Sequence record: NC_102531.1
Strand: one strand, 5' to 3'
DNA length: 64,000 nucleotides
Source of the DNA: a phage
The translations under genes were made by a program, and so were the position numbers. The first letter of the stretch is position 1. Each line of letters opens with the position of its first letter. Under the pieces are notes generated by a model. The model saw nothing but the letters and a program-made list of their open reading frames with translations, did no database searches and was not told the DNA's origin. This document shows, in pieces, positions 3,649-38,606 of the stretch.

Positions 3649-3738
3649 CTTGTTTTCCTCTTCTTGTTCCAGGTGGCGGACCATTCCACCGCCTTATGTA
3701 TTATGCTTTGTTAGATGGTTGTTTGTTGTCAAGCTATT

Positions 3739-19311: not shown

Positions 19312-19682
19312 TGATCGGTCTCCTTCTTGTTAAGTCTGAATACTGCAATAATAGCATTCCCAAGGTGCAGTGTCAAATCATTTCCAAGATACCACAACAT
19401 TCCACGGTCATCTTTGATGAAAGGGTAACAATCTGGTGCCTTCCAGACATTGTACACTTTCCCGACCTGAAAGAAATCAGGACCTGTTGGGATTTTAGTG
19501 CCAGGCCACACTTGAGATACCTGAACACACTCTACCTGCATAATAACAGGGATAGTCATGGATGTAAATGTTTTTGTTGGTTCTACTACCATAAAAGTCT
19601 CCTCTTTGCTCAACAACACTTCCATGTGTTGATAGTTTACATTAGTGACAATCACCCCAATTACGACCACACAAGTATTCAC
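19308..19682 (-). CDS. Hypothetical protein (124 aa)
   Basis: ORF. Confidence 0.45.
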   Translation of the reverse strand: MNTCVVVIGVIVTNVNYQHMEVLLSKEETFMVVEPTKTFTSMTIPVIMQVECVQVSQVWPGTKIPTGPDFFQVGKVYNVWKAPDCYPFIKDDRGMLWYLGNDLTLHLGNAIIAVFRLNKKETDQ

Positions 19683-22419
19683 CTGTGATCTGGAACGGGA
19701 CTCCCATCATTTTAGAAGCTTGCCAGAAGCAATGCACCACCATTTCACCTACAGGGCTCCAGATAAGTTCAAGCTTTCCGTCATCGTTCAGGATAGGATC
19801 GTACACCGTGTTTCCGTCTCTGTCAACCACTTCGTTTCCGTCCTCATCCTTGCGTGCCTTTTTGTGCTTATGACCGTCGAACACATGAAGTTTGGCCTCC
19901 TGCTCTGCCTTAAATGCTTCCAGTTCTTCAATTGTGTCGAAGGTGTACACAGTCTTATACTTCGGTGTGTCAGGCACTTGAAGCTGATATTCGTCATGGT
20001 AATAGATAATACGACGGACACCTTCATCGTACCACCCACGCTTCACCATTTGGTGGTGCATGAGTATCCCAACCAAGTCACACAACGATGCACCACCATT
20101 TTGTTGGTATGCATTAAGCAAAGAGTGTTTAGAGCGAGTCCAGATGGCATGACCATCAAAAGAGTAGATAAATTTCTTACCTGTTGCTTCCCAGAATTTC
20201 TCCAAGTCCTCTTTACGCCCTTTAAGACCGGGGTTGGCATCCCAAAGCGCATCGATCACCCTTTGTCCCAACTCTGGAGAGATATCCAGCATGTCTGCAA
20301 CTTTATCTTTTTGTGCCCCATACATAACCCCATACGTGATAGGTTTACCGTCGTTACGAGACACCTCTCTGCCTGCTACTTTCGTATATGCCTCAGCATT
20401 GTTTTGGTGTGCGTCCCCGTTACTTACAACATCATAATACAAGCCGTTGTCGAACTCAAAGGCACCCCAAGCCCCGATAAGCTGCTCTAAGTTGGACCCG
20501 TCAATACCGATCTCAAAGTATCCTGGAGGAACACCCCACAGACTACGCATCTCTTTACCCATAACCACTTTAGGAGATGGTTTAGGCATGTTTGCACAAA
20601 TACTGTGTTTCTGTCTGGAAGTGTTTGTTAATCCAGAGCTTTTAGCAGGAAGCTTATGGTCAATCTTCAAACGTGGGTGATTAAGAAGACCAGTATCAAC
20701 CTTATCCTCCTTAATTGGATCAAGGACCGATCTGCGGTTTCGCAATGATAACCACAAGACGATATCTTTAGCCATCTCTCCGTTCAATTTTTCAAGATTC
20801 GGACATAGGTGTCCAAACGTATCTTTCAGTTGCGGAGAAGTAATAAGTGCCCTGGCTTTTCTACGTATTTTCCCGAATACTTCCTTTTTAATCCTCTCGG
20901 AGTTAGGAAAGCTTCGGAACTTGTGCACGGTTGTCTGGAACTTAGCATCAGTTTTGTTCCAGAAGTTGATAATCAGGTCACAATACTCTGACTCTAAAAG
21001 CTCGTCCATATATGCATATACTCGTGCATCAACATCTGCATCAGGTAGAGCTTTCTTCTTGCTGTCTTTAGTTACATCCTTAGTTCTCCACATTGTCGGA
21101 AGCCAACCAGCACTGATCAGGTATCGCTTAATATCGTCCTGATTGCTGATTTTCATAGGTATCTTGCAGTCAGGCATTCGCTTCTGCTGCAGATCGCTTA
21201 TTGCCTGATCCATCAGCTCTTTAGGTAAAGGTTGTGGTGTGGAGGTGCCCTTAATATAACCTCTCAAGAAATCAGCCATCTTGTCTGGGTCTTTGCAGCC
21301 CATCTCTTCACACCATTTTATCCCCATTTTACTGACATCTCCTGTGGAGGTAAATGCTCGCTTAGGTGGGGCTTTGAACTCTAAAGCGCTCATGTCTACA
21401 GGATAACCAAGCTTATCTTTTAACCATTTCCAACCATTATTGGAGATTGTCCCATCTTGGTTAAACGGCTTTTCAGGGAACTTGGGCCGCTGAGACATTG
21501 ACAGCTCTTTTAAAGGTAGTTGTGGTTCAACACGATCAGCTATTTCTTTCATCCACGCATCGCAACGGTCACGTAAAGCAATAGCCCCGTCTATGTCGAA
21601 ATACACACCCTGACGGGCCTGCAGCTCCATCAGGAAGTGCTGCAGCATGCCTCGGCGTAATGCGTTCTTCCAGGTGATCTTCTTGAACCCTTTTGGCTTC
21701 TCTTTGGCAGGATCGTACATAAAGTTCTGCATGTCAGATTTGCCGTAGAATACACCTTTTGATTCCGCTACCAGCTCTTTCCAGAGCAGCTCCTGGATGA
21801 TAACGTCCTCGAATACACGATCCACATACTTCCACAGCGGAAGATCGCGCCAGTCATCAATTTGAACTTTCTGGTTACCAAGAGCGTAGCCCCATGCCAT
21901 AAGGCCGTGAGGACCAACAGGCTGCATTTTCTTAGTAACCGGGTTGAATACAGAGTCCGGACAACCTTTTGGTAAAGGGCGATCAGGCCACAAGATTCGG
22001 CTCATCGCCAACGTATCGAACAGGTTAACCTGGTGGTCGTTGATAGTCCCCATACATTTAGGATCACGGAACATATCAAAATGAATACCGGATAATCTCT
22101 CCATCAGCATAAAGTCATAACTGTAGCAGTTATGGCAGTTCAAAGCTGTTGGTGACCAGTCGGAATTTCCTGTAAGCCAACCTTCCAACTCCGAAAAATC
22201 TGCTATGCGAACTTCAAAATCTTTATAAAGAGTTTTCTTTGCCAGAATAAAGTTCTTAGCCTTCTCTATATCCTCCTCGGAGTAGTGTGTGCGGTCATTT
22301 AGAGGAAGGAACAGCATAAAACGGTTCTTATTCAGCTCTTTAAACAGGCCGCAATGATAATAAAGATCTGGGTCTTCCAGCAAACCGGATGACTCAAAAT
22401 CGAACGACCACATGCTCAT
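19642..22419 (-). CDS. DNA polymerase, family A, T7 gp5-like, with N-terminal 3'-5' exonuclease
   Basis: FDFE exonuclease motif, motif B (KPITYGVMYGAQ), motif C (YYHDEYQ); N- and C-termini (ending NWGDCH) resemble T7 gp5 as recalled; AAGGAGA Shine-Dalgarno. Confidence 0.9.
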   Translation of the reverse strand: MSMWSFDFESSGLLEDPDLYYHCGLFKELNKNRFMLFLPLNDRTHYSEEDIEKAKNFILAKKTLYKDFEVRIADFSELEGWLTGNSDWSPTALNCHNCYSYDFMLMERLSGIHFDMFRDPKCMGTINDHQVNLFDTLAMSRILWPDRPLPKGCPDSVFNPVTKKMQPVGPHGLMAWGYALGNQKVQIDDWRDLPLWKYVDRVFEDVIIQELLWKELVAESKGVFYGKSDMQNFMYDPAKEKPKGFKKITWKNALRRGMLQHFLMELQARQGVYFDIDGAIALRDRCDAWMKEIADRVEPQLPLKELSMSQRPKFPEKPFNQDGTISNNGWKWLKDKLGYPVDMSALEFKAPPKRAFTSTGDVSKMGIKWCEEMGCKDPDKMADFLRGYIKGTSTPQPLPKELMDQAISDLQQKRMPDCKIPMKISNQDDIKRYLISAGWLPTMWRTKDVTKDSKKKALPDADVDARVYAYMDELLESEYCDLIINFWNKTDAKFQTTVHKFRSFPNSERIKKEVFGKIRRKARALITSPQLKDTFGHLCPNLEKLNGEMAKDIVLWLSLRNRRSVLDPIKEDKVDTGLLNHPRLKIDHKLPAKSSGLTNTSRQKHSICANMPKPSPKVVMGKEMRSLWGVPPGYFEIGIDGSNLEQLIGAWGAFEFDNGLYYDVVSNGDAHQNNAEAYTKVAGREVSRNDGKPITYGVMYGAQKDKVADMLDISPELGQRVIDALWDANPGLKGRKEDLEKFWEATGKKFIYSFDGHAIWTRSKHSLLNAYQQNGGASLCDLVGILMHHQMVKRGWYDEGVRRIIYYHDEYQLQVPDTPKYKTVYTFDTIEELEAFKAEQEAKLHVFDGHKHKKARKDEDGNEVVDRDGNTVYDPILNDDGKLELIWSPVGEMVVHCFWQASKMMGVPFQITGEYLCGRNWGDCH

Positions 22420-22477: not shown

Positions 22478-24556
22478 TTAAAAAGGCGTTTCATCGTCCT
22501 CAAAACCAGGAATCTGGTCAGAGGATGGATCATCGTACTGGAGGTCTTCCTGCGTGTCAACAGGCTTAACAGTAGGAGTTACAACCTTATCAGCCACAAC
22601 CTTGCCCATAGGTGTTTCTACAACTGCATGCTCCTGATCCTCAAACATGGCCTGAGGTCTCCAAACAACCTCCCCACCTTCTCCGTCTGTAAACATTTGC
22701 ATTTCTTTGTCCCAGTACCAATTACTGGCATCATGGAACTTACCTGTGTGCGGGTCCATAACTAGAGTGTCAGCAATACCTAAAGTTTTTGCTGGACGGT
22801 TTTTAAGACCTACCAGACGGACACGCCCACGAGAACGATCCACCATTTCTTCGGCCTCGACACCTATGACTACCCAACTCAACTGTTCAAGCCCAGCCGA
22901 TCCTCGCAAATTCTCTTTTCGCACAGGATACCAGAAAGGTAACGGGTTACCATCCTTGTCCTTAGGAGGCACAATCTCTGTACGTTTGAGGTGAGCAATC
23001 ACTAAGATAAACACGTTAAACTGCTTACAAAACGCAGCCAGTTGGGTCATAGCCATGTCCAGTTCTTTTCGCTCATCCTTAACATTAAGACCTGAAATTA
23101 CCATGGACAGGTGATCCAGTACAATATAACGACAATGGTACAGGCAAACCATTTGCTTAAGCTTAGTAATCAACTCGTCCACCGGAATAGATCCGAAATG
23201 TTTGAACACTTTGATTTTTCCAGCTTTTGCCCATGATTGGTGAATCTCTGCGTGTTCTTGATCAGTTAAAAACTGGCTAGGGTCTTCAACAAACTCTTTA
23301 ACATCAAACCCTAACTGGTTTGCATACAAGGAGTTAATTGCTTCCTCTGGGTCCTCCTCAAGATGGATCATGCATAGACGATCATCCTCTTCGTAGTCAT
23401 CGGCCTTCGGACATGTCGGGTCCATTAGGTATCTTGCAATACAGTGTTCCAGTTTTTTAGCTACGGTTGTTTTACCGCCACCTGACGGACCTGTAAGCAT
23501 TACGAGTGTCCCTTTGTGCAAGCCTTTTAGCATTTTTTGCAGTTTTGGGAACTCTGCGCTGATATCTACCCCGTTGGAAGTCTTTTTCCGCAAAGACTCG
23601 ATAGAGAAGTCTTCTAAATCCGACACAGCATCAGGCACATATTTAACAGGGTGCCGAAACATGTTGACAATATCTTCTAGCTTTTTAGCCTTCAGCATGT
23701 CACGGATATCTTTTACACCGTCAGGATCGTTTACCTCACCGGGATATTCTACGTGGTAAACGTTATCAGCCATCAAAAATGCTGCGATATTGTGAGTGGC
23801 CTCAACACCTTTAATGACGTGTTTTTGCTTTTCTACCTCGTTAGCTGCATCGTTATCCATTGCCAGCACAACTGTTCCATAGCTACGGATAAACTTCTCA
23901 TTGTTTGCAAAAGTATCTACTGCGTTTGCACATCCACAGTTAATTCCAACAAAAGGTAGGCAGGGTTTTCCTGCCAGATCACCACCGTTGATAACTGCAT
24001 CGATCCCGTCCTGGACCTCTTTAGCCCACTGCTTGACCTTTGCCGGGGCTTTAGCGTTGGTGAGAATCCCTTTTACCTGTATCTGATATGCAGCTTGCCA
24101 TGCTGCAATAACATCTCCTTCCCCCTCACAGACGTTAATCTGCTTGCGGTTGTTAGAGGATGCACACAGCTTTTGACCAAACATCTGAGAGTTAGCCTTT
24201 ACTATGCCTACTACAGACCAGTGTCCTTTCTGCTCTTTCGGCTTAGACCAATCACGTTTTTTGAAACCAGACAGATTCCCGTAGCGGTCGTAATATGGGA
24301 AATATGTTGCAGTAACTGTCACACCGTCTTCTTGGGACAATGCTGATCGCACACCAAAATATTGTGCAGCCATCAGACCGATATTTTGTTGTGGGACAGG
24401 GACAATTTTAGTATTTTCTAAAACAGTCTCTACAGTTTCAACTTCTTTTTCATCACGATAGTCTCGTTTCACACTTCCCCCACTTTTATACTTAGTTGCT
24501 TTCGGGTTTGGCTCACCGAAACGGTTGTATGCAGATGCCATAAATTTACTTCCCAT
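22478..24556 (-). CDS. Primase-helicase (DnaB-type helicase domain), T7 gp4-like
   Basis: Walker A LTGPSGGGKTT, Walker B-like DHLSM; N-terminal primase-like region; adjacent to the polymerase. Confidence 0.8.
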   Translation of the reverse strand: MGSKFMASAYNRFGEPNPKATKYKSGGSVKRDYRDEKEVETVETVLENTKIVPVPQQNIGLMAAQYFGVRSALSQEDGVTVTATYFPYYDRYGNLSGFKKRDWSKPKEQKGHWSVVGIVKANSQMFGQKLCASSNNRKQINVCEGEGDVIAAWQAAYQIQVKGILTNAKAPAKVKQWAKEVQDGIDAVINGGDLAGKPCLPFVGINCGCANAVDTFANNEKFIRSYGTVVLAMDNDAANEVEKQKHVIKGVEATHNIAAFLMADNVYHVEYPGEVNDPDGVKDIRDMLKAKKLEDIVNMFRHPVKYVPDAVSDLEDFSIESLRKKTSNGVDISAEFPKLQKMLKGLHKGTLVMLTGPSGGGKTTVAKKLEHCIARYLMDPTCPKADDYEEDDRLCMIHLEEDPEEAINSLYANQLGFDVKEFVEDPSQFLTDQEHAEIHQSWAKAGKIKVFKHFGSIPVDELITKLKQMVCLYHCRYIVLDHLSMVISGLNVKDERKELDMAMTQLAAFCKQFNVFILVIAHLKRTEIVPPKDKDGNPLPFWYPVRKENLRGSAGLEQLSWVVIGVEAEEMVDRSRGRVRLVGLKNRPAKTLGIADTLVMDPHTGKFHDASNWYWDKEMQMFTDGEGGEVVWRPQAMFEDQEHAVVETPMGKVVADKVVTPTVKPVDTQEDLQYDDPSSDQIPGFEDDETPF

Positions 24557-25340
24557 TAATTCTGCTCCTTACTGCAGGCTCGTTTGCTAAGAATACAGCT
24601 TTTGCCCAGCCACGGGGTGTGAGGCTTCGAATCATCTTTGTTCTTGCACTCTTTCCCCCCAGCTTGGCGTGTTGCATGGAATACCCGCTAACCGCGTCAA
24701 CTATTTGCGGGACAGGTTTTGTGGCCGGGATTATAAATCCATTACCTATCCAGCCGCAAGTTATTTTTGGATAGGCATCACGTGGAGCTATAAATTCAGG
24801 AAACCAGGGGTTTACATCATCCTCCGGTAAATACCCGCCATAATCAGAAGGGTGAAAACGGTAATCAGGTTTGCGCCACAGCGTGGACATAACACCCACA
24901 GGATTCTCTACATGCCACGGGCAATCGTAAATCTCTCCCAACTCTTCTGCAACCCGAGCATCCTTTACAGCGTTAATCTGGATCAGCGGGTCCTTAGCCA
25001 GCTTCTTCTTAAAGTGTGCAGCACCTGACACCGCTAAGTGGGTGCACGGAGGAAATGCAAGAACAAAGTCCGGAGCTGGGTACATGCAGAAAGTTTCCTG
25101 AGGGAACCATGGATCAATCCAATAATCTACATAGTGAATATTTGGATGATCGGTGATCACCTCTGCATAACTGCCGTGGTCAGCACCTTCTGCGTTAAAG
25201 CACAGGCACAGATATCCAGCTTTTGCCCAGTCAATGACTGCACCGCCAGATCCGTCAAACAGACTCCACACAACACCTTTGTGGTAGTGTTCTTTATAGA
25301 TAAATTTCAATTTGCTGTCTCCTAATGCAAAAAGCCCCAC
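24546..25340 (-). CDS. Compact C5-cytosine methyltransferase-like protein (264 aa) with variant catalytic motif
   Basis: Motif I SLFDGSGG, motif IV FPPCTHLAVSG (PCT instead of PCQ), motif VI HVENPVG; too short for a normal target-recognition domain. Confidence 0.5.
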   Translation of the reverse strand: MGLFALGDSKLKFIYKEHYHKGVVWSLFDGSGGAVIDWAKAGYLCLCFNAEGADHGSYAEVITDHPNIHYVDYWIDPWFPQETFCMYPAPDFVLAFPPCTHLAVSGAAHFKKKLAKDPLIQINAVKDARVAEELGEIYDCPWHVENPVGVMSTLWRKPDYRFHPSDYGGYLPEDDVNPWFPEFIAPRDAYPKITCGWIGNGFIIPATKPVPQIVDAVSGYSMQHAKLGGKSARTKMIRSLTPRGWAKAVFLANEPAVRSRINGK

Positions 25341-25355
25341 CCTTTCGGGCAGGGC
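25326..25355 (-). terminator. Intrinsic terminator, second copy of the GAAA-tetraloop hairpin
   Basis: Identical 22-nt hairpin to 15212..15233, followed by TTTTTGCA. Confidence 0.6.
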
Positions 25356-25361
25356 CTAGTG

Positions 25362-25844
25362 TTAAACCCGGATACCTATTGTATACTCGGTGGATACCAA
25401 TGTCAAATCTAAATTTAAAATTTCTTGCATCTCATAATATGCGTCCAGGGTGAGATACATTTCCCCATCCTTTTCTACATACTTGTCAAGGTGTTTGAGG
25501 CACTTTGGATAACTATCAAGTGCAGCTTTCAGACACTCAAATTCTGTGCTGTTGATGAATCCTTCCATCTTGGCTACCCGTTCTGGAGTAACGATAGCAC
25601 TGTAGTGAGATTTAGCTTCCTGAATGCAATGGGTCCAAGCATCAACTTTCTCTTCGAAAAGTCCGAAGAACTTCTTTTTGGTGAGCTTCAGATTCTTTAA
25701 GTGCTTAAGCACTCGGTTGCCGATCACAGCCACATCACGAAACTTAAGGATCACTTTGTCGATATCCTCGCGGCCTATTTTCACAAAGCAAGCTTCACAC
25801 ATTTCAGGAGCTGCGTAACCTACTTTCCACATAAAATCTGACAT
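25362..25844 (-). CDS. Hypothetical protein (160 aa)
   Basis: ORF. Confidence 0.5.
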   Translation of the reverse strand: MSDFMWKVGYAAPEMCEACFVKIGREDIDKVILKFRDVAVIGNRVLKHLKNLKLTKKKFFGLFEEKVDAWTHCIQEAKSHYSAIVTPERVAKMEGFINSTEFECLKAALDSYPKCLKHLDKYVEKDGEMYLTLDAYYEMQEILNLDLTLVSTEYTIGIRV

Positions 25845-25856
25845 AACACTATCTCC

Positions 25857-26255
25857 TTATTCTTCCTGAAAAGCTATGATATCATATGAACTTGCAGATG
25901 ATCCTGGTGAAGAATGACTCCAGTCCAGGTCATCAGAGTAGTCAGCGTACTGTGCACCGCTACGTAGTTTGTATTTTACCCACTTACCTGGTGCAGGGTT
26001 TTCACCACCTTCCCATACTTCCCAGCCTTCTGGCAGGCCGTCCTGAGCATAGTCATCCACCTCACTAATGATCTTAGGGTTTGGCACCAAGATCCCCGCA
26101 GGCTCTTCCTTCCGGATAAGTGTCCACACAGCGTAGGTATCTGAGCAGGCGCATGATAGCAAAGTATATCCACTATTCAGAACTTCTGCAAGCTCTTTTT
26201 CAGCATCTTCCAATTTAGTTAAGTGGTATTGGATAATCTTCACACCTGTAATCAT
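25857..26255 (-). CDS. Hypothetical protein (132 aa)
   Basis: ORF. Confidence 0.5.
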   Translation of the reverse strand: MITGVKIIQYHLTKLEDAEKELAEVLNSGYTLLSCACSDTYAVWTLIRKEEPAGILVPNPKIISEVDDYAQDGLPEGWEVWEGGENPAPGKWVKYKLRSGAQYADYSDDLDWSHSSPGSSASSYDIIAFQEE

Positions 26256-26599
26256 CAGAAACCTCCCACTTCTTCAGCAAATGCAGCTGCTGTCGTCGCT
26301 GCATCCAGATAGGACTCCAGTTCACGGGCTGCACGTTTGTAAATTGAGTGTCGCAAATCGTTTGGCAGTTGGTGGAAGTCCACCTCTTCACCGTTGTGGT
26401 AAACATGCACATCGGTAATTTGTCTAAATCCGTAATAGTCAACATCAGAATCACGGCACTCCGGGTCTGGCAACTGGACAACTGCCTGAGCTTCTACAGT
26501 AAACATATCGTCAAGTTCGAAATCGATTTCAAAAGTGTATGGTTTATAACGTTTCATCATTTGATTGTACTCTTTATTGATCAGACATATCTTTCGCAA
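26255..26599 (-). CDS. Hypothetical protein (114 aa)
   Basis: ORF. Confidence 0.5.
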   Translation of the reverse strand: MRKICLINKEYNQMMKRYKPYTFEIDFELDDMFTVEAQAVVQLPDPECRDSDVDYYGFRQITDVHVYHNGEEVDFHQLPNDLRHSIYKRAARELESYLDAATTAAAFAEEVGGF

Positions 26600-27899
26600 T
26601 TAAGGCCGGGGTAAGTTTGTAATAACGGAAGCCACCACCACCTTGCCAGTTTACAGACTTGGAAATACCACCTTGATCTTCGCCATCGATCACTTTTTCC
26701 AAGCGCGGAATAATATGGGTATGACAATGATCACCCAGTTCGATCAAGATCCAACGTCTTTTCATTTTGTGAGCTACAGCAGCAGTAGTTCCCGAACCAC
26801 CGAATGAATCCAATACCAAATCGCCTTCTCGCGTACACATTTCGAAAATCCGCTTCAAAAGCGCTTCTGGTTTTTTCCCATTTTTGAAACTAACGCCACC
26901 TTCATTTGCTATTCCATTCCAACTAATATCTGTCCAAACATCAGTTATTAGTTCCGCAGGCTGCATCTCACCGTCAATTTCCAAAAGCCTATTGGAGTAA
27001 AAGACCATTTGCCTACCATTTGCGATATAAAATCCTTCAACATCCTCATTTGGATGTACATAAACCTTATCCTTATCTTTCTTTGACTTCTCGATAGTTT
27101 CTTTTCTCTTTATTTTAGCACCACCACCAATTGCAACAGATTGAAATACACGTTCTGCATTATCAATTGCGAATTGTGCTAATTCATCATCGAATGTGTC
27201 AGGCAGTTTTTTCTTGGCTTCTTTTGCATCTTTATAGCCATTGGCCTTTGCAAACGCATCGGCAATACCGCACCACGTCCAATTTTTATAATGGTCATCC
27301 GGGTTTAATAGGTATTTGTTATATCCTGTATCATACCCTTTAGGTATATAGATTTTGTTAAGCGGTTTCTGGGTGCGATCTTTTGCATATACAAGCAAAA
27401 AGTTTGCTGTGGAGAAAACTGTGGCTCCTGTTGCCTTAAATCCCGAAGGGGAATTTGTGGTCATCGATATGGTAGTTAACTGATTTGCACGACCAAAAAT
27501 CTCGTCCATCAAAACTTTTAAATACGCCATTTCGCAATCATCTAAGTGAACGAATATTACCCCATCATCACTTAGAAGATTACGAATTATTTCTAACCTA
27601 TCCCTCATTAAGCCCAGCCAAATGGAATGCTCAAGGCTATCATCGTAGTGCTCAAAAGCCCTTCCAGTATTGAATGGTGGGTCTATGTAAACACACTTCA
27701 CTTTGCCTGCATACTCTTGCTCTAGCGCCTTCAATGCTAATAAGTTATCTCCAAAAATCAGTTTATTATCAAAAATATCGTTTTCGGTCACTTTCTGGCT
27801 GTGGTAAGACTTGCTAGAATCTTCTAACAAAATGTGCGGCTCTAACTTTTTGCGCTCGTTTTTACCTATCCAGGTTAGTTCTAATTTGGTTTTACTCAT
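26574..27899 (-). CDS. DNA methyltransferase, Mod-like, probably N6-adenine; no partner endonuclease recognised
   Basis: LIFGDNLLALKAL then VYIDPPFNTG (motif IV) and C-terminal SFGGSGTTAAVA (motif I), i.e. beta-class order. Confidence 0.8.
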   Translation of the reverse strand: MSKTKLELTWIGKNERKKLEPHILLEDSSKSYHSQKVTENDIFDNKLIFGDNLLALKALEQEYAGKVKCVYIDPPFNTGRAFEHYDDSLEHSIWLGLMRDRLEIIRNLLSDDGVIFVHLDDCEMAYLKVLMDEIFGRANQLTTISMTTNSPSGFKATGATVFSTANFLLVYAKDRTQKPLNKIYIPKGYDTGYNKYLLNPDDHYKNWTWCGIADAFAKANGYKDAKEAKKKLPDTFDDELAQFAIDNAERVFQSVAIGGGAKIKRKETIEKSKKDKDKVYVHPNEDVEGFYIANGRQMVFYSNRLLEIDGEMQPAELITDVWTDISWNGIANEGGVSFKNGKKPEALLKRIFEMCTREGDLVLDSFGGSGTTAAVAHKMKRRWILIELGDHCHTHIIPRLEKVIDGEDQGGISKSVNWQGGGGFRYYKLTPALIAKDMSDQ

Positions 27900-27960
27900 C
27901 GTTTGGTGCTCTCCTTAGTTTTTGTGGGGAGGAGTGCCTCCCCTTTATACTCACATCTTA

Positions 27961-28302
27961 CTACTCAAGGTCTTCAGAGTCAAGCTCAAAAAGAATCAAA
28001 CTGTGCATACCTGCAGAGAGATTAACACACCCTGCAACAATAAGGGTTTGATAGTAAGGTTCAGCACCCTCGATGTCTTCGTTAAAATCCACAACAAGAT
28101 AGTCACCTTTGTTAAAGGTGTATTTGTCCGATGTAAACGCAAAACCTGCCCAGTCCCCTACTGCAGGATCTTTATCAGTCACCTTTGTCAGCAGTAGATC
28201 TTTTTCACGAGATCTTTTAGTAAAATCGTGAATCACGACATCCTTCTCTTCAGGAGTTGGATTGCCACACACGTAGTTAACTATATTTCTCCACAAACTC
28301 AT
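27961..28302 (-). CDS. Hypothetical protein (113 aa)
   Basis: ORF. Confidence 0.45.
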   Translation of the reverse strand: MSLWRNIVNYVCGNPTPEEKDVVIHDFTKRSREKDLLLTKVTDKDPAVGDWAGFAFTSDKYTFNKGDYLVVDFNEDIEGAEPYYQTLIVAGCVNLSAGMHSLILFELDSEDLE

Positions 28303-29669
28303 ACGTCCCCCTCTTCTGCTCTGGTTTCAAAATCTTTCCTGACAATTTTGTCTAAGTCAGGAAAGGTTGTATTGTAAAACTCTACGACTCGCGGGTCAAC
28401 AATAATGTCAACTTCTCTTAGTGGACGCAACAAGTTTATTCCTTGTATTGTCTTAACTCGACTCAAAGCAACATACGTCATCCCAGGAGAGAAAGCTCCG
28501 TTCTTTCCAAGGTCCAGGTTGTAACAATCTAGCGTAAGTCCTTGACTTTTATGAGATGTTACGGCGTACCCAGATTTCAGAGGGAGTTGCTTGTATGATC
28601 CAATCACTACCCTCTCTATAAACTTCTCCATCTTCCTTTCTGCAATGTTGTATCTTTGAGATGGCTTATACTCGTTATTCTCCCACAACCTTTGTTCTAT
28701 GTCAACCTGTGTTCCATCTTCAAGCTCTACCACCACCGCCTTGTTCTTAAATTTAACAATTGTGGCACGTGTTCCGTTAACATAATAAGGTACTTTGTGC
28801 GTCGGGTCAACATCGTTGGCGGTTATCATAACTTTCATGCCAATTTTCAACTTCATCTCCTGCTCAACTGGCAAGGTGGAGGGAAACTTACCCTTCATTT
28901 CACCAGTGTATACCTTCTCTGGGGCGTTGATGGCATCATAGAACCTTCTGTTCACTTCCTCTGCTTGTTTGTTGGTGGCGCAAATTGTGAGAGCATCTGT
29001 TGGTACACCGCCTTTGTAACAGCGAGCATTAAGTTCTGCTACAACCTCTTTTATGCGACGACCCTCACGAACACAGTTGAGCATTGTGGCAAATCGAATA
29101 GACTCCTGTCGGAACTGATCTATTAGGGCTATGTTGTGGAGGTCAAGCTCTTTCCAAGATTCGGTATAGCAACACAGGTCCGTATGGTAGAAGTTGAAAT
29201 AGGCTTCCTTCTCCATAGAAGAGACAACAGGAGGTGCCTGGTAAAAATCGCCAAACAATATGACCTGTATGCCTCCGAAAGGTTTGTCATTTTTTCGAAG
29301 GAAGCGGAGTTTCCTATCCATCTCTATAAACTTATCAGCACGGATCATAGAGATTTCATCGATAATTAGGATGGTAAATGCCTTGCTTTTCAAAGGCTTT
29401 GCTGTTTTTGCCCTTATTGCGGTCCAATCTGACTCCATGCTCACACCTGCTGCAAGATCGAAGGTTCGGTGTGCTGTTGCTCCATTAACGTTTAAAGCGG
29501 CTACCCCTGTCGGGGCAACCGTTATGCAAGAGTCTCCATACATCGACTGGATCATGTTGATGAGATACGTCTTCCCACAACCTGCAGGTCCTGAAACGAA
29601 GACATTCTCACCACTCATGATTGCAACGAGGGCAGCATCTGTGCCTACATCATACTGCCCTTTTTCCAT
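28299..29669 (-). CDS. SF1B DNA helicase, Pif1/RecD/Dda-like
   Basis: Walker A GPAGCGKT, APTGVAA, Walker B IIDEISM, GDFYQAPPV, TSHKSQG. Confidence 0.8.
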   Translation of the reverse strand: MEKGQYDVGTDAALVAIMSGENVFVSGPAGCGKTYLINMIQSMYGDSCITVAPTGVAALNVNGATAHRTFDLAAGVSMESDWTAIRAKTAKPLKSKAFTILIIDEISMIRADKFIEMDRKLRFLRKNDKPFGGIQVILFGDFYQAPPVVSSMEKEAYFNFYHTDLCCYTESWKELDLHNIALIDQFRQESIRFATMLNCVREGRRIKEVVAELNARCYKGGVPTDALTICATNKQAEEVNRRFYDAINAPEKVYTGEMKGKFPSTLPVEQEMKLKIGMKVMITANDVDPTHKVPYYVNGTRATIVKFKNKAVVVELEDGTQVDIEQRLWENNEYKPSQRYNIAERKMEKFIERVVIGSYKQLPLKSGYAVTSHKSQGLTLDCYNLDLGKNGAFSPGMTYVALSRVKTIQGINLLRPLREVDIIVDPRVVEFYNTTFPDLDKIVRKDFETRAEEGDV

Positions 29670-30874
29670 TACGCCTCCTCGTAAAGAATGTCGATAGTGT
29701 TACCGTCACGATCAACTACATATTCAATAGGGTCTCCATCTTTGCGTGCTTCCGGAGCTACCACAATCTCATAGCGGCATGCACGGCACTTAGCGCTATT
29801 GTGTTGGTATGGCACACTAACCACATCTGCAGGGTCAACCATAACAGTCATTACAGTGCCGTAGCTCTTTGCATACTCTTTGCTGGCGCAGTGTAAGCCA
29901 TAGGAGCACGCAGCTTCCGGATCATCCTCTACAAAGTTACGAGGCATGGATACAAAAGCCCCCTGGTATTGTGGAACTTTACCACTGTGCCAATCCACCC
30001 ACTTGCTGCCGTTAAACTGAACCCCTTTGTAGCAAATGATTCGACCATCTTCTGCAATCTGAATATCATTGGCCTGCATAAAATCGTAGAGCATGTTTAC
30101 AGATTTTGCAGAAGGATTGCGTAGCAGGCGAACGAGGAATTTCACATAGCGGTCATCCAGTGTTCCGTCTGCATAATCTTTCTCAATTTTCTTTGCAATG
30201 GTGGATCGCATCTCTACACCGTAGTAGTAGAGCTTACCATCTTTCATGATCAGGTTGTCTGCAAGTGTGGTGAACTCATTCTTGCGTTCCAGCCAGACAA
30301 GGATTTCACCAATTGCCTCGTCATATTCCTGAACAGAGATATGGTCGAAGACTTTCTGGTAAACTTCCTCACTTTCGCTGCGGCGAATTTCAAAAATGCC
30401 TTCGTTGCAGGTAATCTGGAGGAGTTCCCCACAAATAACTACCAAAGGCTCAATGCTTCGAGTCTGTTGCTGAGACACACTGCTCACCACCTCCAGCACC
30501 GGATCTTTGACTTCTATTGAAGGTTCTTCTGACTTGATTGCTACCCCAGTGAACCCCACACCGTGAACAACACACAGTGGGTATACCACGCCCCAACGTT
30601 TAACGGAACCTTCGCCTAAATCTAAGATCATGGCGTACTTACCGTTATCTTCCAGACCGTATCGAAATAAACGGGCCTCTTCGCGGGTTTCAAAATCCTC
30701 ACGGGTGTAGCAGACGCTGTCACGGTCAGGATCGAACAACTCTGGGGCACCCACTGCCAGTGTCCAGGTTGTGTCGCCTTTCTCAATGGCACATGTGAAA
30801 CCCTTCTTCTCAAGTTCTGCACGGCGGTCTCGTGCTTCTTTACGGGTTTTGAAATGTTCGTAGATGAAAATCAT
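29669..30874 (-). CDS. Hypothetical protein (401 aa), partner of the GHKL ATPase
   Basis: Long ORF immediately downstream of the GHKL gene; no motif recognised. Confidence 0.55.
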   Translation of the reverse strand: MIFIYEHFKTRKEARDRRAELEKKGFTCAIEKGDTTWTLAVGAPELFDPDRDSVCYTREDFETREEARLFRYGLEDNGKYAMILDLGEGSVKRWGVVYPLCVVHGVGFTGVAIKSEEPSIEVKDPVLEVVSSVSQQQTRSIEPLVVICGELLQITCNEGIFEIRRSESEEVYQKVFDHISVQEYDEAIGEILVWLERKNEFTTLADNLIMKDGKLYYYGVEMRSTIAKKIEKDYADGTLDDRYVKFLVRLLRNPSAKSVNMLYDFMQANDIQIAEDGRIICYKGVQFNGSKWVDWHSGKVPQYQGAFVSMPRNFVEDDPEAACSYGLHCASKEYAKSYGTVMTVMVDPADVVSVPYQHNSAKCRACRYEIVVAPEARKDGDPIEYVVDRDGNTIDILYEEA

Positions 30875-30884
30875 CTTGGTCTCC

Positions 30885-32867
30885 TTATTTGATGTTATTC
30901 TTTGTATCGATCAGTTCACGGTATTCAATCATAGCAGGAGTGTCCCAATATTTCAAGCCTACATGCTTCAAAAGTGGGTATTTCTTTTCCAATCTTGCAA
31001 TATAGGCCTTCCCGCATTTAACTCGGTTGGCGATTAAGATTTTGGCACGATGATTTAGCTCGCTGTGCTTCCACGCGGTGTTACCTTCCCACTTGTGGAA
31101 ATGTGGCCGATAATTTCCAAAATCTTGCATGGGAATAATTTTCCCTAATTGTCTATACAGGCTGTCATATGAAGTTTCATTTGCTGCGCGAGTCAGTAAG
31201 AATTTCCAGGCGTCCTCTTTCAACAAATGTTCCACATTCTTCTCTGTAACATACTGGCAATCAGGATCAGTCCAAAGCAGACGAGATTCTGATACCAGGT
31301 ACAGATCTTCCCCTTCAGGAATCTGGAGTGCCGCACGCACACGGTCATAATTTTGCTGGTAGATGTTACTCATCTGTCCCAGCCAGCAGCTTCCCCGTTG
31401 GATATCTCCCTCATAAGGGATGCAATGCTTAATCTTCTTGAACTCTGCCTTCGTGAGGCGCTCACGATGGAAGTAGCCATCCTCTCTAAGCTTCTTAACC
31501 CAGTAACCCGGCTCGTAACGAGTTTTGGTTTCACCTTTCTTCGAAGGTCGGCGTGGAAGCTCAGATAATAATTTTACCGTATCTGCAAAGAACGGGTGGT
31601 GTGCCGCCTCTTTAAACTCTTTCACCAGATCCGTGTTCCGACAATAGAAAACGTTGCGTCCGGTGATCTCGCTTAAGTAGTTACACTTATTCCGGTTATA
31701 TTTGCCGTCTCCGTCGTTAAATACTAAATAGACTCCCCGTAGGAATTCTACCTTTCCGTAGCAGGAGTAGCCTATGCGGCCTTTATTTAAGCCGCCAGCG
31801 AAGATCTCACAATCTCCCAAACTTCCTAGTCCTGTCTCTTCCCATCGGTCCCACATAAAATTCTTACCGAAGATGTGCCCGAACACTCCACTGTTCTTCA
31901 TCATCTCGCGTGCTTCTGAGGATGTTTTTGCTGTCTCCAATTCCGCAACAACTTCTGCCCCACGAAGACGGATACCTTCTTTGACAAAAGCCTCCAGACG
32001 CTCTTGGAATCCACCATCGTCGTGCCCCTCTATGGTCCATTCGCGCCCAGGATTAATATTGCAATCCCCGATAGGGATCTCTACACAGATTGCAGGGTAG
32101 TCTGTCAATGTTTCCAGAAACTTAGAGCGGTAAGGTTGGTGTCCCATCACCACACGGCTCTCATCAGAGCTGGTATAACCTTTCAGGATGGTCATTTTCC
32201 AACCATCTTTCTCGTAGCGATACTGCGCCTCAACCTTGTCACCTTCCAGCATCTTACTGGTCATAGGGTCGGTAACGGTAAACGGAAACTTTGCATAGCG
32301 TAGGCATGACGCAATAGCAGTGCGATATTTCAGAACATGCTCTTTCTTAACATGGAACTGAACTTTTACCCCGTTGTGCTCTTCAGTCTTCCGCTCGCGG
32401 ATCTTGGTAACGTTTGGGATACCCTGATCCAAGAACAACAGATATGTGCTTTCAACACCGTTGTGCACACTGATCACATCGAAAGTGTCCACCATGCTGA
32501 ACGGGGCCTTTGAACCTACACCTTTATTACCTACCAGAGCGTTGCTGTTGCGCTTGGTTGACTCCCCGAGGTTCATGAAAGTGTTGCGGACCATCTCTTC
32601 CGACATGCCCAATCCAACGTCCTGCACAAAGAAGTATGGTTCAAGGTCTGTAGGAGAGTGAATGATGATCGGTACATCACCCCGTCCAGACTCAACATGG
32701 GAGTCCACAGCATTGAAGATTGGTTCACGGCAGCTTGCCAGCACCTTATCTTCGTAAATCCCTTTAATGATTAGCCCAAAAGTCTCTTTGTTCAGAGAAA
32801 TTGAGCCCCTGGTGACCTCCATATTTCCGGTTAGTACTGCTTTAGTTTCATTACTGTTTACAATCAT
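30885..32867 (-). CDS. GHKL-family ATPase domain protein (660 aa), rIIA-like candidate
   Basis: Bergerat-fold motifs: N-box EPIFNAVDS, G1 VQDVGLGMS, G2 GNKGVGSKAPF; the long C-terminal region is unassigned. Confidence 0.6.
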   Translation of the reverse strand: MIVNSNETKAVLTGNMEVTRGSISLNKETFGLIIKGIYEDKVLASCREPIFNAVDSHVESGRGDVPIIIHSPTDLEPYFFVQDVGLGMSEEMVRNTFMNLGESTKRNSNALVGNKGVGSKAPFSMVDTFDVISVHNGVESTYLLFLDQGIPNVTKIRERKTEEHNGVKVQFHVKKEHVLKYRTAIASCLRYAKFPFTVTDPMTSKMLEGDKVEAQYRYEKDGWKMTILKGYTSSDESRVVMGHQPYRSKFLETLTDYPAICVEIPIGDCNINPGREWTIEGHDDGGFQERLEAFVKEGIRLRGAEVVAELETAKTSSEAREMMKNSGVFGHIFGKNFMWDRWEETGLGSLGDCEIFAGGLNKGRIGYSCYGKVEFLRGVYLVFNDGDGKYNRNKCNYLSEITGRNVFYCRNTDLVKEFKEAAHHPFFADTVKLLSELPRRPSKKGETKTRYEPGYWVKKLREDGYFHRERLTKAEFKKIKHCIPYEGDIQRGSCWLGQMSNIYQQNYDRVRAALQIPEGEDLYLVSESRLLWTDPDCQYVTEKNVEHLLKEDAWKFLLTRAANETSYDSLYRQLGKIIPMQDFGNYRPHFHKWEGNTAWKHSELNHRAKILIANRVKCGKAYIARLEKKYPLLKHVGLKYWDTPAMIEYRELIDTKNNIK

Positions 32868-35942: not shown

Positions 35943-36298
35943 TATTCTACCTCCTCTTCTTTTTCTTCGGCATTAGTTTCATGGCTACTCCACTCGGGAG
36001 TTTCTACCTCGACAGTAAACTCACGCACTACACGGTAATTGCCCATGAAGCGCTCTACTTCGTCAAGGCTTATGGAGAGGCCATTGGCAACCAGGTCTGC
36101 AGCACCCTCTTCTACCAGGTAGTCCAGATTGGCTTCCAGAGCCTCAGGTTCAAACCCTGTCAATGCAATCAGATAACCTTCCCCTTCATCAGGGAGGACA
36201 ATACAGCCCAATTGATTTTCTTTAAAAAGGCAGTGACCATCATTATTGATTGGGTGTTCATTGCAGTAAATAGCTGCACGATAAGTAACTTTAGACAT
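35942..36298 (-). CDS. Hypothetical protein (118 aa) beginning MSKVTYRA inside the 29-bp inverted repeat
   Basis: ATG at 36298 preceded by AAGGAGA; first 24 coding nt identical to 38142..38165 on the other strand. Confidence 0.45.
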   Translation of the reverse strand: MSKVTYRAAIYCNEHPINNDGHCLFKENQLGCIVLPDEGEGYLIALTGFEPEALEANLDYLVEEGAADLVANGLSISLDEVERFMGNYRVVREFTVEVETPEWSSHETNAEEKEEEVE

Positions 36299-36303
36299 CG
36301 GTA
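36275..36303. repeat. 29-bp perfect inverted repeat, left copy
   Basis: Exact reverse complement of 38137..38165; flanking bases differ on both sides. Confidence 0.85.
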
Positions 36304-36311
36304 AGGTCTCC

Positions 36312-36590
36312 TTAGGCAATTGTCATTTTACATTCTTGAAATTTTAACACAAGACGGTGATTGTGTCTAGTGTCTAAAAAGATTTTTTCAACCATCAGGC
36401 ACACGGTATAACCGTCCATCTTGTTGACAACAAAATCTCCAGGATGAGGGAGGATGTCTCCCGGATTGGGGAAACATAGTCCACTCAGAAAGGCATCGTC
36501 AGTGGTGGACTTAATAGATTTCCACACACTGTCTGCCTGAACATGTTCGCCGACGTAATATACATTACCACATGCCTTCATCATAGTCAA
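36312..36590 (-). CDS. Hypothetical protein (92 aa)
   Basis: ORF. Confidence 0.45.
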   Translation of the reverse strand: MTMMKACGNVYYVGEHVQADSVWKSIKSTTDDAFLSGLCFPNPGDILPHPGDFVVNKMDGYTVCLMVEKIFLDTRHNHRLVLKFQECKMTIA

Positions 36591-37486
36591 ACCCTCGCAT
36601 AAATTAAACTTGTATCAGTATACTTCTTTAATGGGTAAATATCCTGTCCATAGATGCAATCATTAAACACCTCATCTACCCAAAGGCTACACTTATATCC
36701 CATCATTTCTAAAACACCCATCTCTTCTTCGGTAAACTTATCACCGCTCTTGCAAGATGTCAATACCTCATTCTGAACTCTTGCTACCTCGAAGCGGTTA
36801 TTGGCAATATCGCTATTGGCGATCAAATACTCACCTAGAGGGTGTGCGGCATTAAAGATGCACAGTGGACGGCTGACGTAATAGTCTCCGGGTGTATAAA
36901 AATTGTTGAGGTCTTTCACTAGAACATTCTTATCAGTCACTTCATTTATAACATCATGCATATCGCACATCTTTATATGTTTGAGGATTCCATCCCCCAT
37001 CACAAAATAAAAACTTGCTGAGACACTTTCGGCATAGATCTTACTAGATCCGTTGTAGTTGTATTTTACTCGGATGCTAACGGGGGTTTTTCCTGTCGCG
37101 TTAGCCATCATCCAAAGAAATGGCAGCTCATACTTCTCCTCTGAGGAAACAAAAGGTGAGGTAGCCAGAGATCGAAAACCTCCAGAGAAGTTGAAAGTTA
37201 CAGAACCGCTCCGGCGGTATGATACCGCGTATTCTACTTTTATATCGACGTACCCATTGGAATAGGTGTGTCCTTCATTATCTAAATATGTCCACTTATC
37301 AGACCCAGATACCAATCTACGCTCAATAACCTTCATCACTACAGGAATTAGTGGGTTGGTACAAACCGCTTTTGAAGTAGCTTTATCATCTAAAGCCTCG
37401 TAAATTGCAGAAAGGATGTCCCCAGCTGAAAGATTGGTTGTTATGTCCTGTTTCCACCGCGTACTAAAACTGTTAAGATTTGCCAT
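36587..37486 (-). CDS. Hypothetical protein (299 aa)
   Basis: ORF; first gene of the leftward block. Confidence 0.5.
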   Translation of the reverse strand: MANLNSFSTRWKQDITTNLSAGDILSAIYEALDDKATSKAVCTNPLIPVVMKVIERRLVSGSDKWTYLDNEGHTYSNGYVDIKVEYAVSYRRSGSVTFNFSGGFRSLATSPFVSSEEKYELPFLWMMANATGKTPVSIRVKYNYNGSSKIYAESVSASFYFVMGDGILKHIKMCDMHDVINEVTDKNVLVKDLNNFYTPGDYYVSRPLCIFNAAHPLGEYLIANSDIANNRFEVARVQNEVLTSCKSGDKFTEEEMGVLEMMGYKCSLWVDEVFNDCIYGQDIYPLKKYTDTSLIYARV

Positions 37487-37526
37487 AAGTAAGTGCTCCT
37501 ATGTTAGTTTTCTTTCGAATGGGTGC

Positions 37527-37555
37527 ACTATATTGTGGAGTTAGAGTAAAGTCAA
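37527..37555 (-). promoter_or_regulatory. Sigma70-like promoter in the divergent region (-35 TTGACT, 17-nt spacer, -10 TATAGT)
   Basis: Hexamers and spacing read directly. Confidence 0.45.
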
Positions 37556-37565
37556 CACGTTTTTG

Positions 37566-38606
37566 ATGTTGACATCTGTTGAGACAATTGATACGATTTC
37601 TTCACTTACAGAGCACGAGAGACGACTCATGAATCTTGAAAAATATTATACACCAGAAGAGTTAGAGCGCTTGCTCAAAAAATATAGACGCAAACAGAAT
37701 AACGCACGGAAACGAGATATAGAGTTCGACCTGTCATGGGAAGAATACCTCCTATTTGGTAAAAAACTTTTAGGAGATGGAGTATGCGACTATACCCTTA
37801 TACCTTTTGACATGCACACAGATGAAAACGGGCTGGGAAATCCTTTCTACCCATCTCTGGAGCGGATAGATGATGAAGGTCCTTATGCGGTTGATAACTG
37901 TTGTGTGGTGGGATTGAGATGCAACTCTCTAAAGGACTGTCTGGTAGATAAAAAGACTGCAGTCTTGATTAAAGACGAAACTGATCGAAAAATTGTCCAG
38001 CAGATGATGCTCCACCTGAGCGAAGAGCGTATGGAGAAATTGAAAGGTGATTATACTTTTGAAGATTTCATCTTGCAATATGGAACGGAAGAGGATAAAC
38101 TAGCACTCTTTGACGAAGAAGAGGAGGAAGATATGCTACCGATGTCTAAAGTTACTTATCGTGCACCCAAGAAGCACATTTCCGACATTGTAAACGAGCC
38201 TATCACAGAAGAGATTGAAGAAATGACGCAACAGGTGCATGAAGAGGAAAAAGAGACTCAGGAGGTCGAAGAGGAGCTTACAGAAGAGGTTCCTGCACTA
38301 CCTGATGATGTTGAGATTGCCAAAGCTTACACTTTCTATTGTCAAACGTTCTACGATGTAGGTATGAAAGTTGATCTGTCGTTCAGCCAATTTAAGAGTT
38401 CGTATATTCGCAAATGCTGTGCTTTAACTGGTGAACGTCTTGAAGCTGGACTTAAACCTCTGTTGGTGACCGACTGGAATAAAGGTTTCACTAAAGGAAA
38501 CTTTATGGTAGTATCTCCAATTATGGAGAAAGCTATGACAGATCTTATGAAGACCACCCGCATGACAATGACCGAGTTGGCAGGTATTTTCAAACACGTT
38601 AAATAA
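37566..38606 (+). CDS. Hypothetical protein (346 aa) with internal MSKVTYRA copy at residue 193 and an acidic central linker
   Basis: First gene of the plus-strand island; contains the right copy of the 29-bp inverted repeat in frame. Confidence 0.5.
   Translation: MLTSVETIDTISSLTEHERRLMNLEKYYTPEELERLLKKYRRKQNNARKRDIEFDLSWEEYLLFGKKLLGDGVCDYTLIPFDMHTDENGLGNPFYPSLERIDDEGPYAVDNCCVVGLRCNSLKDCLVDKKTAVLIKDETDRKIVQQMMLHLSEERMEKLKGDYTFEDFILQYGTEEDKLALFDEEEEEDMLPMSKVTYRAPKKHISDIVNEPITEEIEEMTQQVHEEEKETQEVEEELTEEVPALPDDVEIAKAYTFYCQTFYDVGMKVDLSFSQFKSSYIRKCCALTGERLEAGLKPLLVTDWNKGFTKGNFMVVSPIMEKAMTDLMKTTRMTMTELAGIFKHVK
38137..38165. repeat. 29-bp perfect inverted repeat, right copy
   Basis: taccgatgtctaaagttacttatcgtgca, reverse-complementary to 36275..36303. 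Confidence 0.85.

Follow-up and report, generated by a model that had tools for sequence, protein, structure and literature searches.

Mod, the methylation subunit of restriction-modification (R-M) systems of type III, has been structurally resolved in EcoP15I, in which residues 14-60 form an N-terminal domain (NTD), residues 62-262 and 390-516 the methyltransferase (MTase) domain, residues 263-384 a target recognition domain (TRD) and residues 539-644 a C-terminal domain (CTD) (PMC4490356). Dimerisation proceeds through the NTD and MTase domains, extensive contacts with the Res subunit are made by the CTD of ModA, and the Mod2 dimer is known to act as a stand-alone methylase (PMC4490356). This study concerns a gene for a predicted Mod-like N6-adenine DNA methyltransferase, located at positions 26574..27899 (minus strand) of a 64,000-nucleotide stretch of phage DNA (NC_102531.1), hereafter the window. 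The window is 97-98% identical to genomes of Vequintavirus, the rV5-like lytic myophages of Escherichia coli (e.g., RudolfGeigy/Bas52 of the BASEL collection), consistent with the original prediction of a virulent phage. The gene closely matches the mod gene of a chromosomal E. coli type III system, stops short of the region encoding the putative Res-docking domain, and stands in the phage without a restriction partner.

The capture of a methylase by a phage is an established concept. Lactococcal phage phi50 acquired the amino domain of a plasmid-borne methylase, that of the LlaI system on pTR2030, and protective orphan methylases were gained by 936-type phages (PMC4190342). In function, phi50 is the closest precedent: lytic phages took part of a host or plasmid R-M methylase, restricted to a functional domain, and became resistant to the system concerned (PMC4190342). 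Their enzymes are of type II/IIS and their protection was demonstrated experimentally, whereas the gene in the window derives from a type III Mod, omits the nuclease-docking domain, and has a protective effect that is predicted. Orphan Mods are also carried by Campylobacter phages (Fletchervirus NCTC12673 gp096, CP8 and CP81), which are 37-40% identical to the window protein, lack Res, and are annotated for their similarity to a C. jejuni type III methylase subunit. NCTC12673 gp096 comprises 392 amino acids (aa) and aligns to residues 45-426 of the window protein with the same C-terminal boundary; these proteins nevertheless form a separate lineage without the N-terminal ~45 residues. Phasevarion and orphaned bacterial Mods are likewise type III Mods without functional restriction, but they are full-length cellular proteins with simple-sequence repeats and regulate host genes, whereas the present gene resides in a lytic phage. 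Tandem Repeats Finder detected no repeat over 26400-28100, and thus no phase-variable tract in or upstream of the open reading frame (ORF).

A type III Mod homologue and its chromosomal counterpart

The original prediction described this ORF as a beta-class, Mod-like methyltransferase, and the present analysis agrees on each of these points. The ORF starts with ATG on the minus strand, spans 1,326 nt and encodes 441 aa, including the three motifs cited in that prediction, GDNLLALKAL (aa 50-59), DPPF (aa 73-76) and FGGSGTT (aa 366-372). Motif IV lies N-terminal of motif I with the TRD, an insert of ~145 aa, between them, which is the circular permutation of the beta class. The protein matches the Pfam family N6_N4_Mtase (PF01555) with an E-value of 1.2e-41 (143.5 bits; cutoff 26.7) and the PADLOC model MTase_III (PDLC03636) with an E-value of 1.7e-204, type II models scoring far lower; the PDLC03636 match spans only profile positions 2-443 of 575. 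Its closest solved structures by sequence are the type III Mods 6k0w, 4zcf (EcoP15I) and 7dsu (Mbo45V), and the same trio (4zcf_A/B, 6k0w and 7dsu) leads the Foldseek results for its AlphaFold2 (AF2) model (pLDDT 83, pTM 0.79). The Mod-like label is thus strongly supported by the PADLOC model and by the structures retrieved in both sequence and fold searches.

Individual features of the protein, all encoded on the minus strand, agree with this assignment. The motif LELTWIGK (aa 6-13; 27861..27884) belongs to the N-terminal region involved in Mod dimerisation, and its aligned counterparts are YSLNWLGK in EcoP15I and YELTWTGK in 6k0w. Catalytic motif IV, DPPF, is encoded at 27672..27683 and the AdoMet-binding motif I, FGGSGTT, at 26784..26804; D73, P74 and P75 of the former and F366, G368, S369, G370, T371 and T372 of the latter are invariant across 51 homologues, the phage protein among them. 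The TRD inserted in the MTase fold (approximately aa 178-321; 26937..27368) was delimited from AF2 secondary structure and the EcoP15I domain map. A D-P-P-aromatic motif IV is typical of N6-adenine, rather than N4-cytosine, enzymes. From the DPPF motif and from homology, we infer a dimeric enzyme that would modify adenine at N6 within a short asymmetric site, on one of the two strands.

Compared with EcoP15I and EcoP1I Mod, the phage protein belongs to the same family by profile, sequence and fold, sharing the NTD motif, the order IV...TRD...X-I and the inserted TRD. It differs from them in being only ~20% identical, in lacking the linker and CTD (EcoP15I aa 539-644), and in having no res gene in the phage. 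GenBank names for the Vequintavirus copies include 'putative N6 adenine methyltransferase', 'type III restriction-modification system methylation subunit' and 'modification methylase BamHI'; since many records already annotate the gene, its existence is not new. The last of these names, which denotes a type II N4-cytosine enzyme, is wrong, because motif IV reads DPPF and not S-P-P-Y/F. The type II/N4C structures 1boo and 8s9n match only the ~50-aa motif I region, with E-values between 1e-5 and 1e-6, where the Mods reach 1e-24 to 1e-28. The most fitting class for the gene is that of an orphan derived from a type III Mod by loss of the CTD; it departs from its family in two defining features, the CTD and an adjacent res.

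The phage gene was used as a megablast query against 5,426 complete E. coli genomes, with matches of at least 80% coverage counted as carriers. A chromosomal mod gene was present in 24 of these genomes (0.44%) and showed 94.7% nt identity across nt 1-1318 of the phage ORF. The two proteins are 96% identical across the whole phage ORF, with 93% identity in the NTD, 94-96% in the MTase core and 141 of 144 residues in the TRD, where the three differences are all conservative. Given this near-identity of the TRD, the predicted recognition site is almost certainly that of the host system. E. coli Mod (568 aa) matches the PADLOC MTase_III model over its full length (7.4e-285), and a 912-aa Res (PADLOC REase_III, 8.8e-191) follows 22 bp after mod. 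Named carriers include E. coli SMN152SH1, 2014C-3011 and APEC E16002 (Mod accessions WP_024226319 / WP_213054361). Upstream of mod lie a mad1-like helix-turn-helix (HTH) gene and genes for a DrmD-like SNF2 helicase, AbiD and an AbiU/AIPR protein. The chromosomal system, in E. coli as in Catenovulum agarivorans DS-2, therefore differs from the phage locus in that its Mod has a CTD, with Res after it and HTH, SNF2 and Abi genes before it. The original prediction had pictured a methylase with no restriction partner; such a partner is absent from the phage but exists in the host, alongside a mod gene ~95% identical at the nt level. This mod-res system is the donor of the phage gene or a sibling of the donor.

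The defence island carrying the system is located beside tRNA-Sec and integrase remnants in one E. coli strain and beside IS66 in another. Since it was also found, with 90-92% nt identity, in C. agarivorans DS-2, a marine bacterium, and in one gammaproteobacterial metagenome-assembled genome, the island is mobile. Its assignment to ARMADA II or DISARM was considered and rejected, the partner being a ResIII-type Res; ARMADA II requires a YprA/DUF1998 helicase-nuclease and a UvrD-like protein (PMC13463889). Among 80 cellular loci of the family, 52 contained a SNF2 (DrmD-like) homologue upstream of Mod-Res on the same strand and within 4 kb. The SNF2 gene either directly adjoins Mod-Res or is separated from it by a variable 'cargo slot' of other defence genes. 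This slot is occupied by AbiD and AbiU/AIPR both in E. coli and in a TARA marine contig, and by a PARIS-like pair, AAA_21 and DUF4276, in Acinetobacter. SNF2-Mod-Res, to which the donor pair belongs, is a conserved module that, by gene content, is neither DISARM nor ARMADA.

The phage has retained about the first 1.32-1.35 kb of mod (codons 1 to ~438), encoding the NTD helices, MTase core and TRD, together with a frameshifted scrap, and is missing the ~130-aa CTD. The 3' cassette junction was placed at 26555..26594 (minus strand) by alignment with two E. coli chromosomes, with phage FV3 and with methylase-less phages. The phage sequence tracks the host gene up to '...AAAGATA', where an 11-bp deletion relative to the host shifts the frame to KDMSDQ and a stop codon; an out-of-frame CTD remnant of ~25 bp follows (GATCAATAAAGAGTACAA, host residues INKEYN). 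Homology stops at the ATG of the next phage gene (26255..26557, minus strand), whose start codon is identified as the cassette insertion point by comparison with empty sites. Because ~25 bp of homology continues past the phage stop into host CTD-coding sequence, the phage copy derives from a longer gene. Transfer in the opposite direction, from phage to host, was rejected, since full-length homologues with Res are the rule in bacteria and the phage holds out-of-frame CTD DNA. Nearly all bacterial homologues in the 60-76% identity range have a length of 560-600 aa, and the CTD of E. coli Mod is as conserved relative to distant homologues as the remainder of the protein. These points indicate that transfer ran from host to phage.

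The upstream leader (27900..27960, minus strand) comprises a stem-loop, GGGGAGGCACTCCTCCCC (27926-27943), and a leader containing a ribosome-binding site, AAGGAGAGCACCAAACG (27900-27916). In methylase-less Vequintavirus genomes the flanks are directly joined, and the same stem-loop and leader sit right before the next gene. The phage leader resembles the E. coli mod leader, AAGAGCACAGAAATGATG, a likeness that may reflect microhomology used for capture. The variant in FV3 encodes 447 aa and has another 3' junction, with no 11-bp deletion, an earlier divergence, and an extra hairpin and leader. Within that leader 3' of the FV3 cassette (locus L005, 2185-2300, minus strand), a 12-mer, ACACAAGATAAG, equals the stretch that immediately precedes the mod start codon in E. 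coli (locus L002, 8960-9000), so that host leader-like sequence flanks the 3' side of the FV3 cassette.

The missing C-terminal domain and its link to Res

Both the truncation point and the absence of Res can be placed within the wider Mod family. HMMER aligns phage residues 338-379 to EcoP15I residues 414-454, and by extrapolation the phage C-terminus at residue 441 would correspond to roughly residue 517 of EcoP15I, where the MTase domain ends. Full-length E. coli Mod was also modelled with AF2 (pLDDT 77); in this model, a low-confidence linker (431-450) precedes a compact alpha/beta CTD (451-540, pLDDT 83-92); the phage protein terminates inside this linker. The top Foldseek match for the full-length model was EcoP15I Mod, with ~605 columns aligned and a low whole-chain TM. 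Searches of the host CTD against the PDB yielded chance matches only (E>=0.15), and the correspondence between this domain and the EcoP15I CTD is accordingly positional and architectural. Its position, its modelled fold class and its co-occurrence with Res suggest that the two domains are equivalent.

The original prediction called the methylase an orphan flanked by a Pif1-like helicase and small unknown genes, with neither Res nor a type II endonuclease, and named a cognate endonuclease nearby as one finding that would contradict it. Profile searches bore out this description of the flanks, and no such endonuclease was found. By tblastn, the cognate host Res had no homologue in the window (best E=1.4) and no Vequintavirus match among 50,697 phage records. 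No nuclease was found among the neighbours of the methylase in searches against Pfam, NCBIfam, PADLOC and PHROGs. The helicase at 28299..29669 shows no similarity to the host Res and is thus not a Res subunit.

To relate the CTD to Res across the family, 80 cellular and 80 IMG/VR viral loci were scored for the length of the ORF past the MTase end and for a downstream Res homologue. Among the 77 cellular loci with a determinable end, 75 encode a CTD and two are CTD-less; in IMG/VR viral contigs, the end could be determined at 25 loci, of which 18 encode a CTD and seven do not. CTD-less genes are thus enriched in viral contigs (7/25 vs 2/77; p=6.5e-4). Where cellular full-length genes had enough downstream DNA, Res lay immediately downstream in 68 of 69 cases. 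Overall, Res accompanied 83 of 84 full-length genes and none of eight CTD-less ones (Fisher p=1e-10). Identity to the window protein ranges from 35 to 63% among the seven viral genes without a CTD, which end at query-equivalent positions 430-471 and have no Res. Additionally, a 444-aa CTD-less copy, 86-87% identical in nt to the Vequintavirus gene, was found in an otherwise unrelated phage-like contig encoding NrdD, PhoH, ClpP and Dam. At one metagenomic bacterial locus, mod is split into ORFs of 452 and 139 aa ahead of Res, marking the same domain boundary.

Further loci of this family show unusual arrangements. In one IMG/VR contig (L100), a fragment at 3607-3936, directly upstream of a CTD-less Mod (51% identity), has a match (50% identity) confined to the C-terminal ~110 residues of the SNF2 helicase, and looks like the remnant of a capture spanning the SNF2 3' end and the 5' part of mod in another viral lineage. 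A bacterial CTD-less homologue of 442 aa (65% identity; L007/L008, 6001-9112) is preceded by a truncated 432-aa SNF2 gene and followed, in place of Res, by a 560-628-aa protein with a weak TnsA-like nuclease match at its N-terminus. This protein may be an alternative partner, or the locus a decayed system.

Selection, distribution and proposed function

Nei-Gojobori dN/dS values fall in the range 0.07-0.10 overall, with 0.10 for the window against RudolfGeigy, 0.08 against FV3 and 0.10 against E. coli. These ratios indicate that the phage gene, TRD included, is under purifying selection. The gene is carried by 87 phage records, nearly all of which give one uninterrupted match over 100% of the protein. 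Among 116 Vequintavirus-type records matching the flanks, 85 contain the cassette and ~30 have adjacent flanks and no methylase, an absence seen in both rV5-like and FV3-like lineages. The methylase is therefore an accessory gene, with about a quarter of Vequintavirus genomes cleanly without the cassette; SophiaRose and Pr121LW are natural methylase-negative relatives, whereas RudolfGeigy/Bas52 and rV5 are methylase-positive.

Between the window and FV3, dS is 0.35 for the methylase, 0.68 for the flanking helicase and 0.50 for a nearby C5-like methylase gene, whereas the methylase dS to the E. coli allele is 0.21 for the window and FV3 alike. Because its dS is below that of the flanks, the cassette is younger than the split of these phage lineages. 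A single ancient capture in the ancestor of the genus is unlikely, given the lower dS (0.35 vs 0.50-0.68), the equal distance of both phages from E. coli (0.21) and the differing 3' junctions. Either more than one capture took place, or the cassette spread from phage to phage after a single one; both scenarios fit.

On balance, the evidence favours narrow self-methylation against the donor type III system as the role of the gene. The gene stems from capture of the Mod part of a mobile type III system, located in a defence island that a minority of E. coli and other Gammaproteobacteria hold. Under this explanation, the phage Mod would be expressed alongside the replication genes, form a Mod2 dimer, and N6-methylate one strand of the donor system's short asymmetric site on replicating phage DNA; the same site is proposed because the recognition domains are 98% identical. 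Progeny DNA would then leave every host premarked as 'self' for the donor system and would stay uncut on entering the next carrier cell. Without the docking domain, the phage enzyme would methylate but should not join host Res in new restriction complexes. Protection limited to one specificity fits the accessory status of the gene in the genus. The original prediction had proposed protective self-methylation against host restriction; escape from restriction by self-methylation stays the likeliest function inferred here, but general protection is not supported in view of the BASEL data discussed below.

Several observations weigh against this explanation or narrow it. In the BASEL study, Vequintavirinae were 'exceptionally susceptible' to EcoKI, EcoCFT_I, EcoRI, EcoRV, EcoP1_I and EcoCFT_II (PMC8594841), so a general anti-restriction role is unsupported and protection, if present, has to be narrow. 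None of the 24 E. coli carriers is CFT073; as the BASEL systems are all non-cognate, the susceptibility limits the claim to narrow protection and does not refute it. With the donor system present in only 0.44% of the complete E. coli genomes, it is less obvious that the donor could exert strong selection. The gene is in two pieces in two of 24 listed carrier records (e.g., O157 typing phage 14 and EmilHeitz), and its loss is therefore tolerated in culture. In EcoP15I, Res also touches the MTase domain of ModA (PMC4490356), so loss of the CTD may weaken rather than abolish Res binding, and the positional nature of the CTD correspondence calls for the same caution. A literature search found no published Vequintavirus methylome or plating data with the cognate system.

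The same truncation can be read as a dominant-negative device, in which a CTD-less Mod heterodimerises with the host Mod (96% identical) or competes for its sites, so that the resulting complexes cannot dock Res and restriction is blunted within the same infection, whether or not methylation matters. The phage protein retains the NTD and MTase dimerisation domains, at 93% and 94-96% identity to host Mod, respectively, and lacks the region corresponding to the ModA CTD that docks Res in EcoP15I. CTD-less forms, moreover, recur in viral contigs with ends at query-equivalent positions of about 430-471. A poison subunit would not, however, need strictly conserved catalytic and AdoMet motifs or purifying selection over the whole protein including the TRD, and the gene would have to be transcribed from incoming DNA already exposed to restriction. 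We consider this explanation unlikely, and it is in any case compatible with self-methylation rather than exclusive of it. Quite improbable is an epigenetic regulator of the phage's own cycle, acting on the timing of transcription, replication or packaging, a role of the kind suggested for Dam methylation when phage P1 packages its DNA. The gene does sit in the replication module, with genes for helicase, primase-helicase and polymerase around it, purifying selection acts on it, and regulatory roles have been discussed for some phage methylases (PMC4190342). Nonetheless, about a quarter of otherwise ~97%-identical Vequintavirus genomes, all from viable isolates, cleanly lack it, and it is younger than the phage backbone (dS 0.35 vs 0.50-0.68 for the flanks). 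Its near-identity to a subunit of a host restriction system also fits an exchangeable accessory gene better than a wired-in regulator.

A truncated gene with an out-of-frame 3' remnant, missing from many relatives and split in some records, might also be a neutral passenger, a host fragment acquired by illegitimate recombination and decaying or functionless in the phage. Such a passenger would hardly show dN/dS values of 0.07-0.10 in phage-phage comparisons, an intact ORF over 100% of its length in almost all 87 carrier records and a full set of catalytic residues. Random fragments, furthermore, would not end where a domain ends in three or more Vequintavirus-type variants whose junctions differ (rV5-type, FV3-type and the L006 contig), which leaves this explanation decidedly unlikely. 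Broad-spectrum protective methylation against restriction in general, the original prediction at face value, has the appeal that orphan phage methylases are commonly read in this way (PMC4190342; PMC12707154). We regard it as very improbable, since a type III Mod methylates one short specific site and the Vequintavirinae found 'exceptionally susceptible' to type I, II and III systems include the methylase-positive Bas52, contradicting broad protection for the six systems tested (PMC8594841).

Returning to narrow self-methylation, the rarity of the donor system and the presence/absence polymorphism of the cassette suggest weak or fluctuating selection. Carriage may also have a cost, for example from methyl-dependent restriction, a speculation prompted by a remark on Mrr in PMC12707154. 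A more far-reaching idea appears possible but doubtful. In it, viral type III methylases would have lost the CTD repeatedly and adaptively, yielding an 'uncoupled antidote' by which phage DNA is marked but which cannot be drawn into host restriction complexes and perhaps poisons them by heterodimerising with host Mod. The system targeted would then be no plain type III enzyme but a three-gene defence module, SNF2-Mod-Res, widespread yet uncharacterised, whose 'cargo slot' takes AbiD and AbiU or a PARIS-like pair.

Genomic context and significance

The genes around the methylase lie on the same (minus) strand. Immediately downstream is the gene whose start codon marks the insertion point; it encodes a 100-aa protein of PHROG 4240, unassigned in function and annotated in RudolfGeigy, and is one of three downstream genes for small proteins of unassigned function. 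Upstream, 27961..28302 encodes a 113-aa protein of PHROG 11869, also unassigned in function and with no nuclease match in any library. It is followed by the Pif1/Dda-like SF1 helicase (28299..29669, 456 aa), a replication gene that matches Pfam PIF1 (1.1e-32) and PHROG 325, Dda-like helicase (6.4e-112).

The C5-like methylase gene used in the dS comparison lies at 24546-25340 (minus strand), 1.2 kb downstream of the Mod-like gene, and encodes 264 aa with the C5-cytosine-like motifs FDGSGG, PPCT and ENP. It has no match in Pfam, NCBIfam or PADLOC at E<=0.01 and matches only PHROG 757, 'DNA methyltransferase' (7.9e-87). The protein is unusually short for a C5 enzyme; it is extremely conserved, with a dN/dS of ~0.01, and the gene is kept in phages without the Mod-like gene. 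A putative second beta-class methylase at 45.3 kb proved to be a spurious, weak tblastn match inside a tail-fibre ORF. An rIIA homologue at 30885-32867 (minus strand) contains a GHKL ATPase domain (HATPase_c_3, 1.8e-08) and is weakly similar to the ATPase modules of sacsin/HSP90-type and BbrUII/HgiDII proteins. Its NCBIfam match to 'BbrUII/HgiDII restriction enzyme' (E=1e-3; 17.8 bits vs a cutoff of 550) was dismissed as reflecting the shared GHKL ATPase fold only.

In the DNA polymerase gene of the window (19642-22419, minus strand), the longest ORF encodes 925 aa, and the RudolfGeigy annotation joins two pieces over 3,054 bp (L001, 7367-10420), which suggests an intervening sequence or a programmed frameshift. 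The GC content of 26001-28000 is 0.415, which, together with 0.416 at 36001-38000, makes these the two lowest 2-kb bins besides the first (1-2000, 0.388); most bins range from 0.42 to 0.46. The methylase ORF has a GC content of 39.6%, similar to the ~41% of the homologous part of the E. coli gene; values for the host CTD-coding part and res are 44% and 46%, respectively. Sixteen unannotated GenBank records of the MG0656xx series, named 'Campylobacter phage' (host C. jejuni), are ~97% identical in nt to E. coli Vequintavirus over 24000-31000. These are probably mislabelled or contaminant E. coli phages, genuine Campylobacter phages being 37-40% identical at the protein level.

To the known concept of a captured methylase, this locus adds a near-identical host donor system, a domain-precise truncation, a family-wide link between the CTD and Res, and an accessory, recently mobile cassette. 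The CTD-Res link (83/84 vs 0/8) supports, across the family, the Res-docking role seen in a single EcoP15I crystal structure. That the Mod-Res family is usually accompanied by a DrmD-like SNF2 helicase and by a cargo slot of variable content hints at a form of type III defence that has received little study. A vague 'putative adenine methyltransferase' in dozens of therapeutic-candidate E. coli phages can now be restated as a defined pairing of one phage gene with one host system, both of them named, for which natural plus/minus phage variants already exist in collections (BASEL Bas52 vs SophiaRose-type). If the proposed function is true, it would partly account for how the host range of rV5-like phages varies between strains and would provide a selectable module for engineering phages against strains that carry this island.

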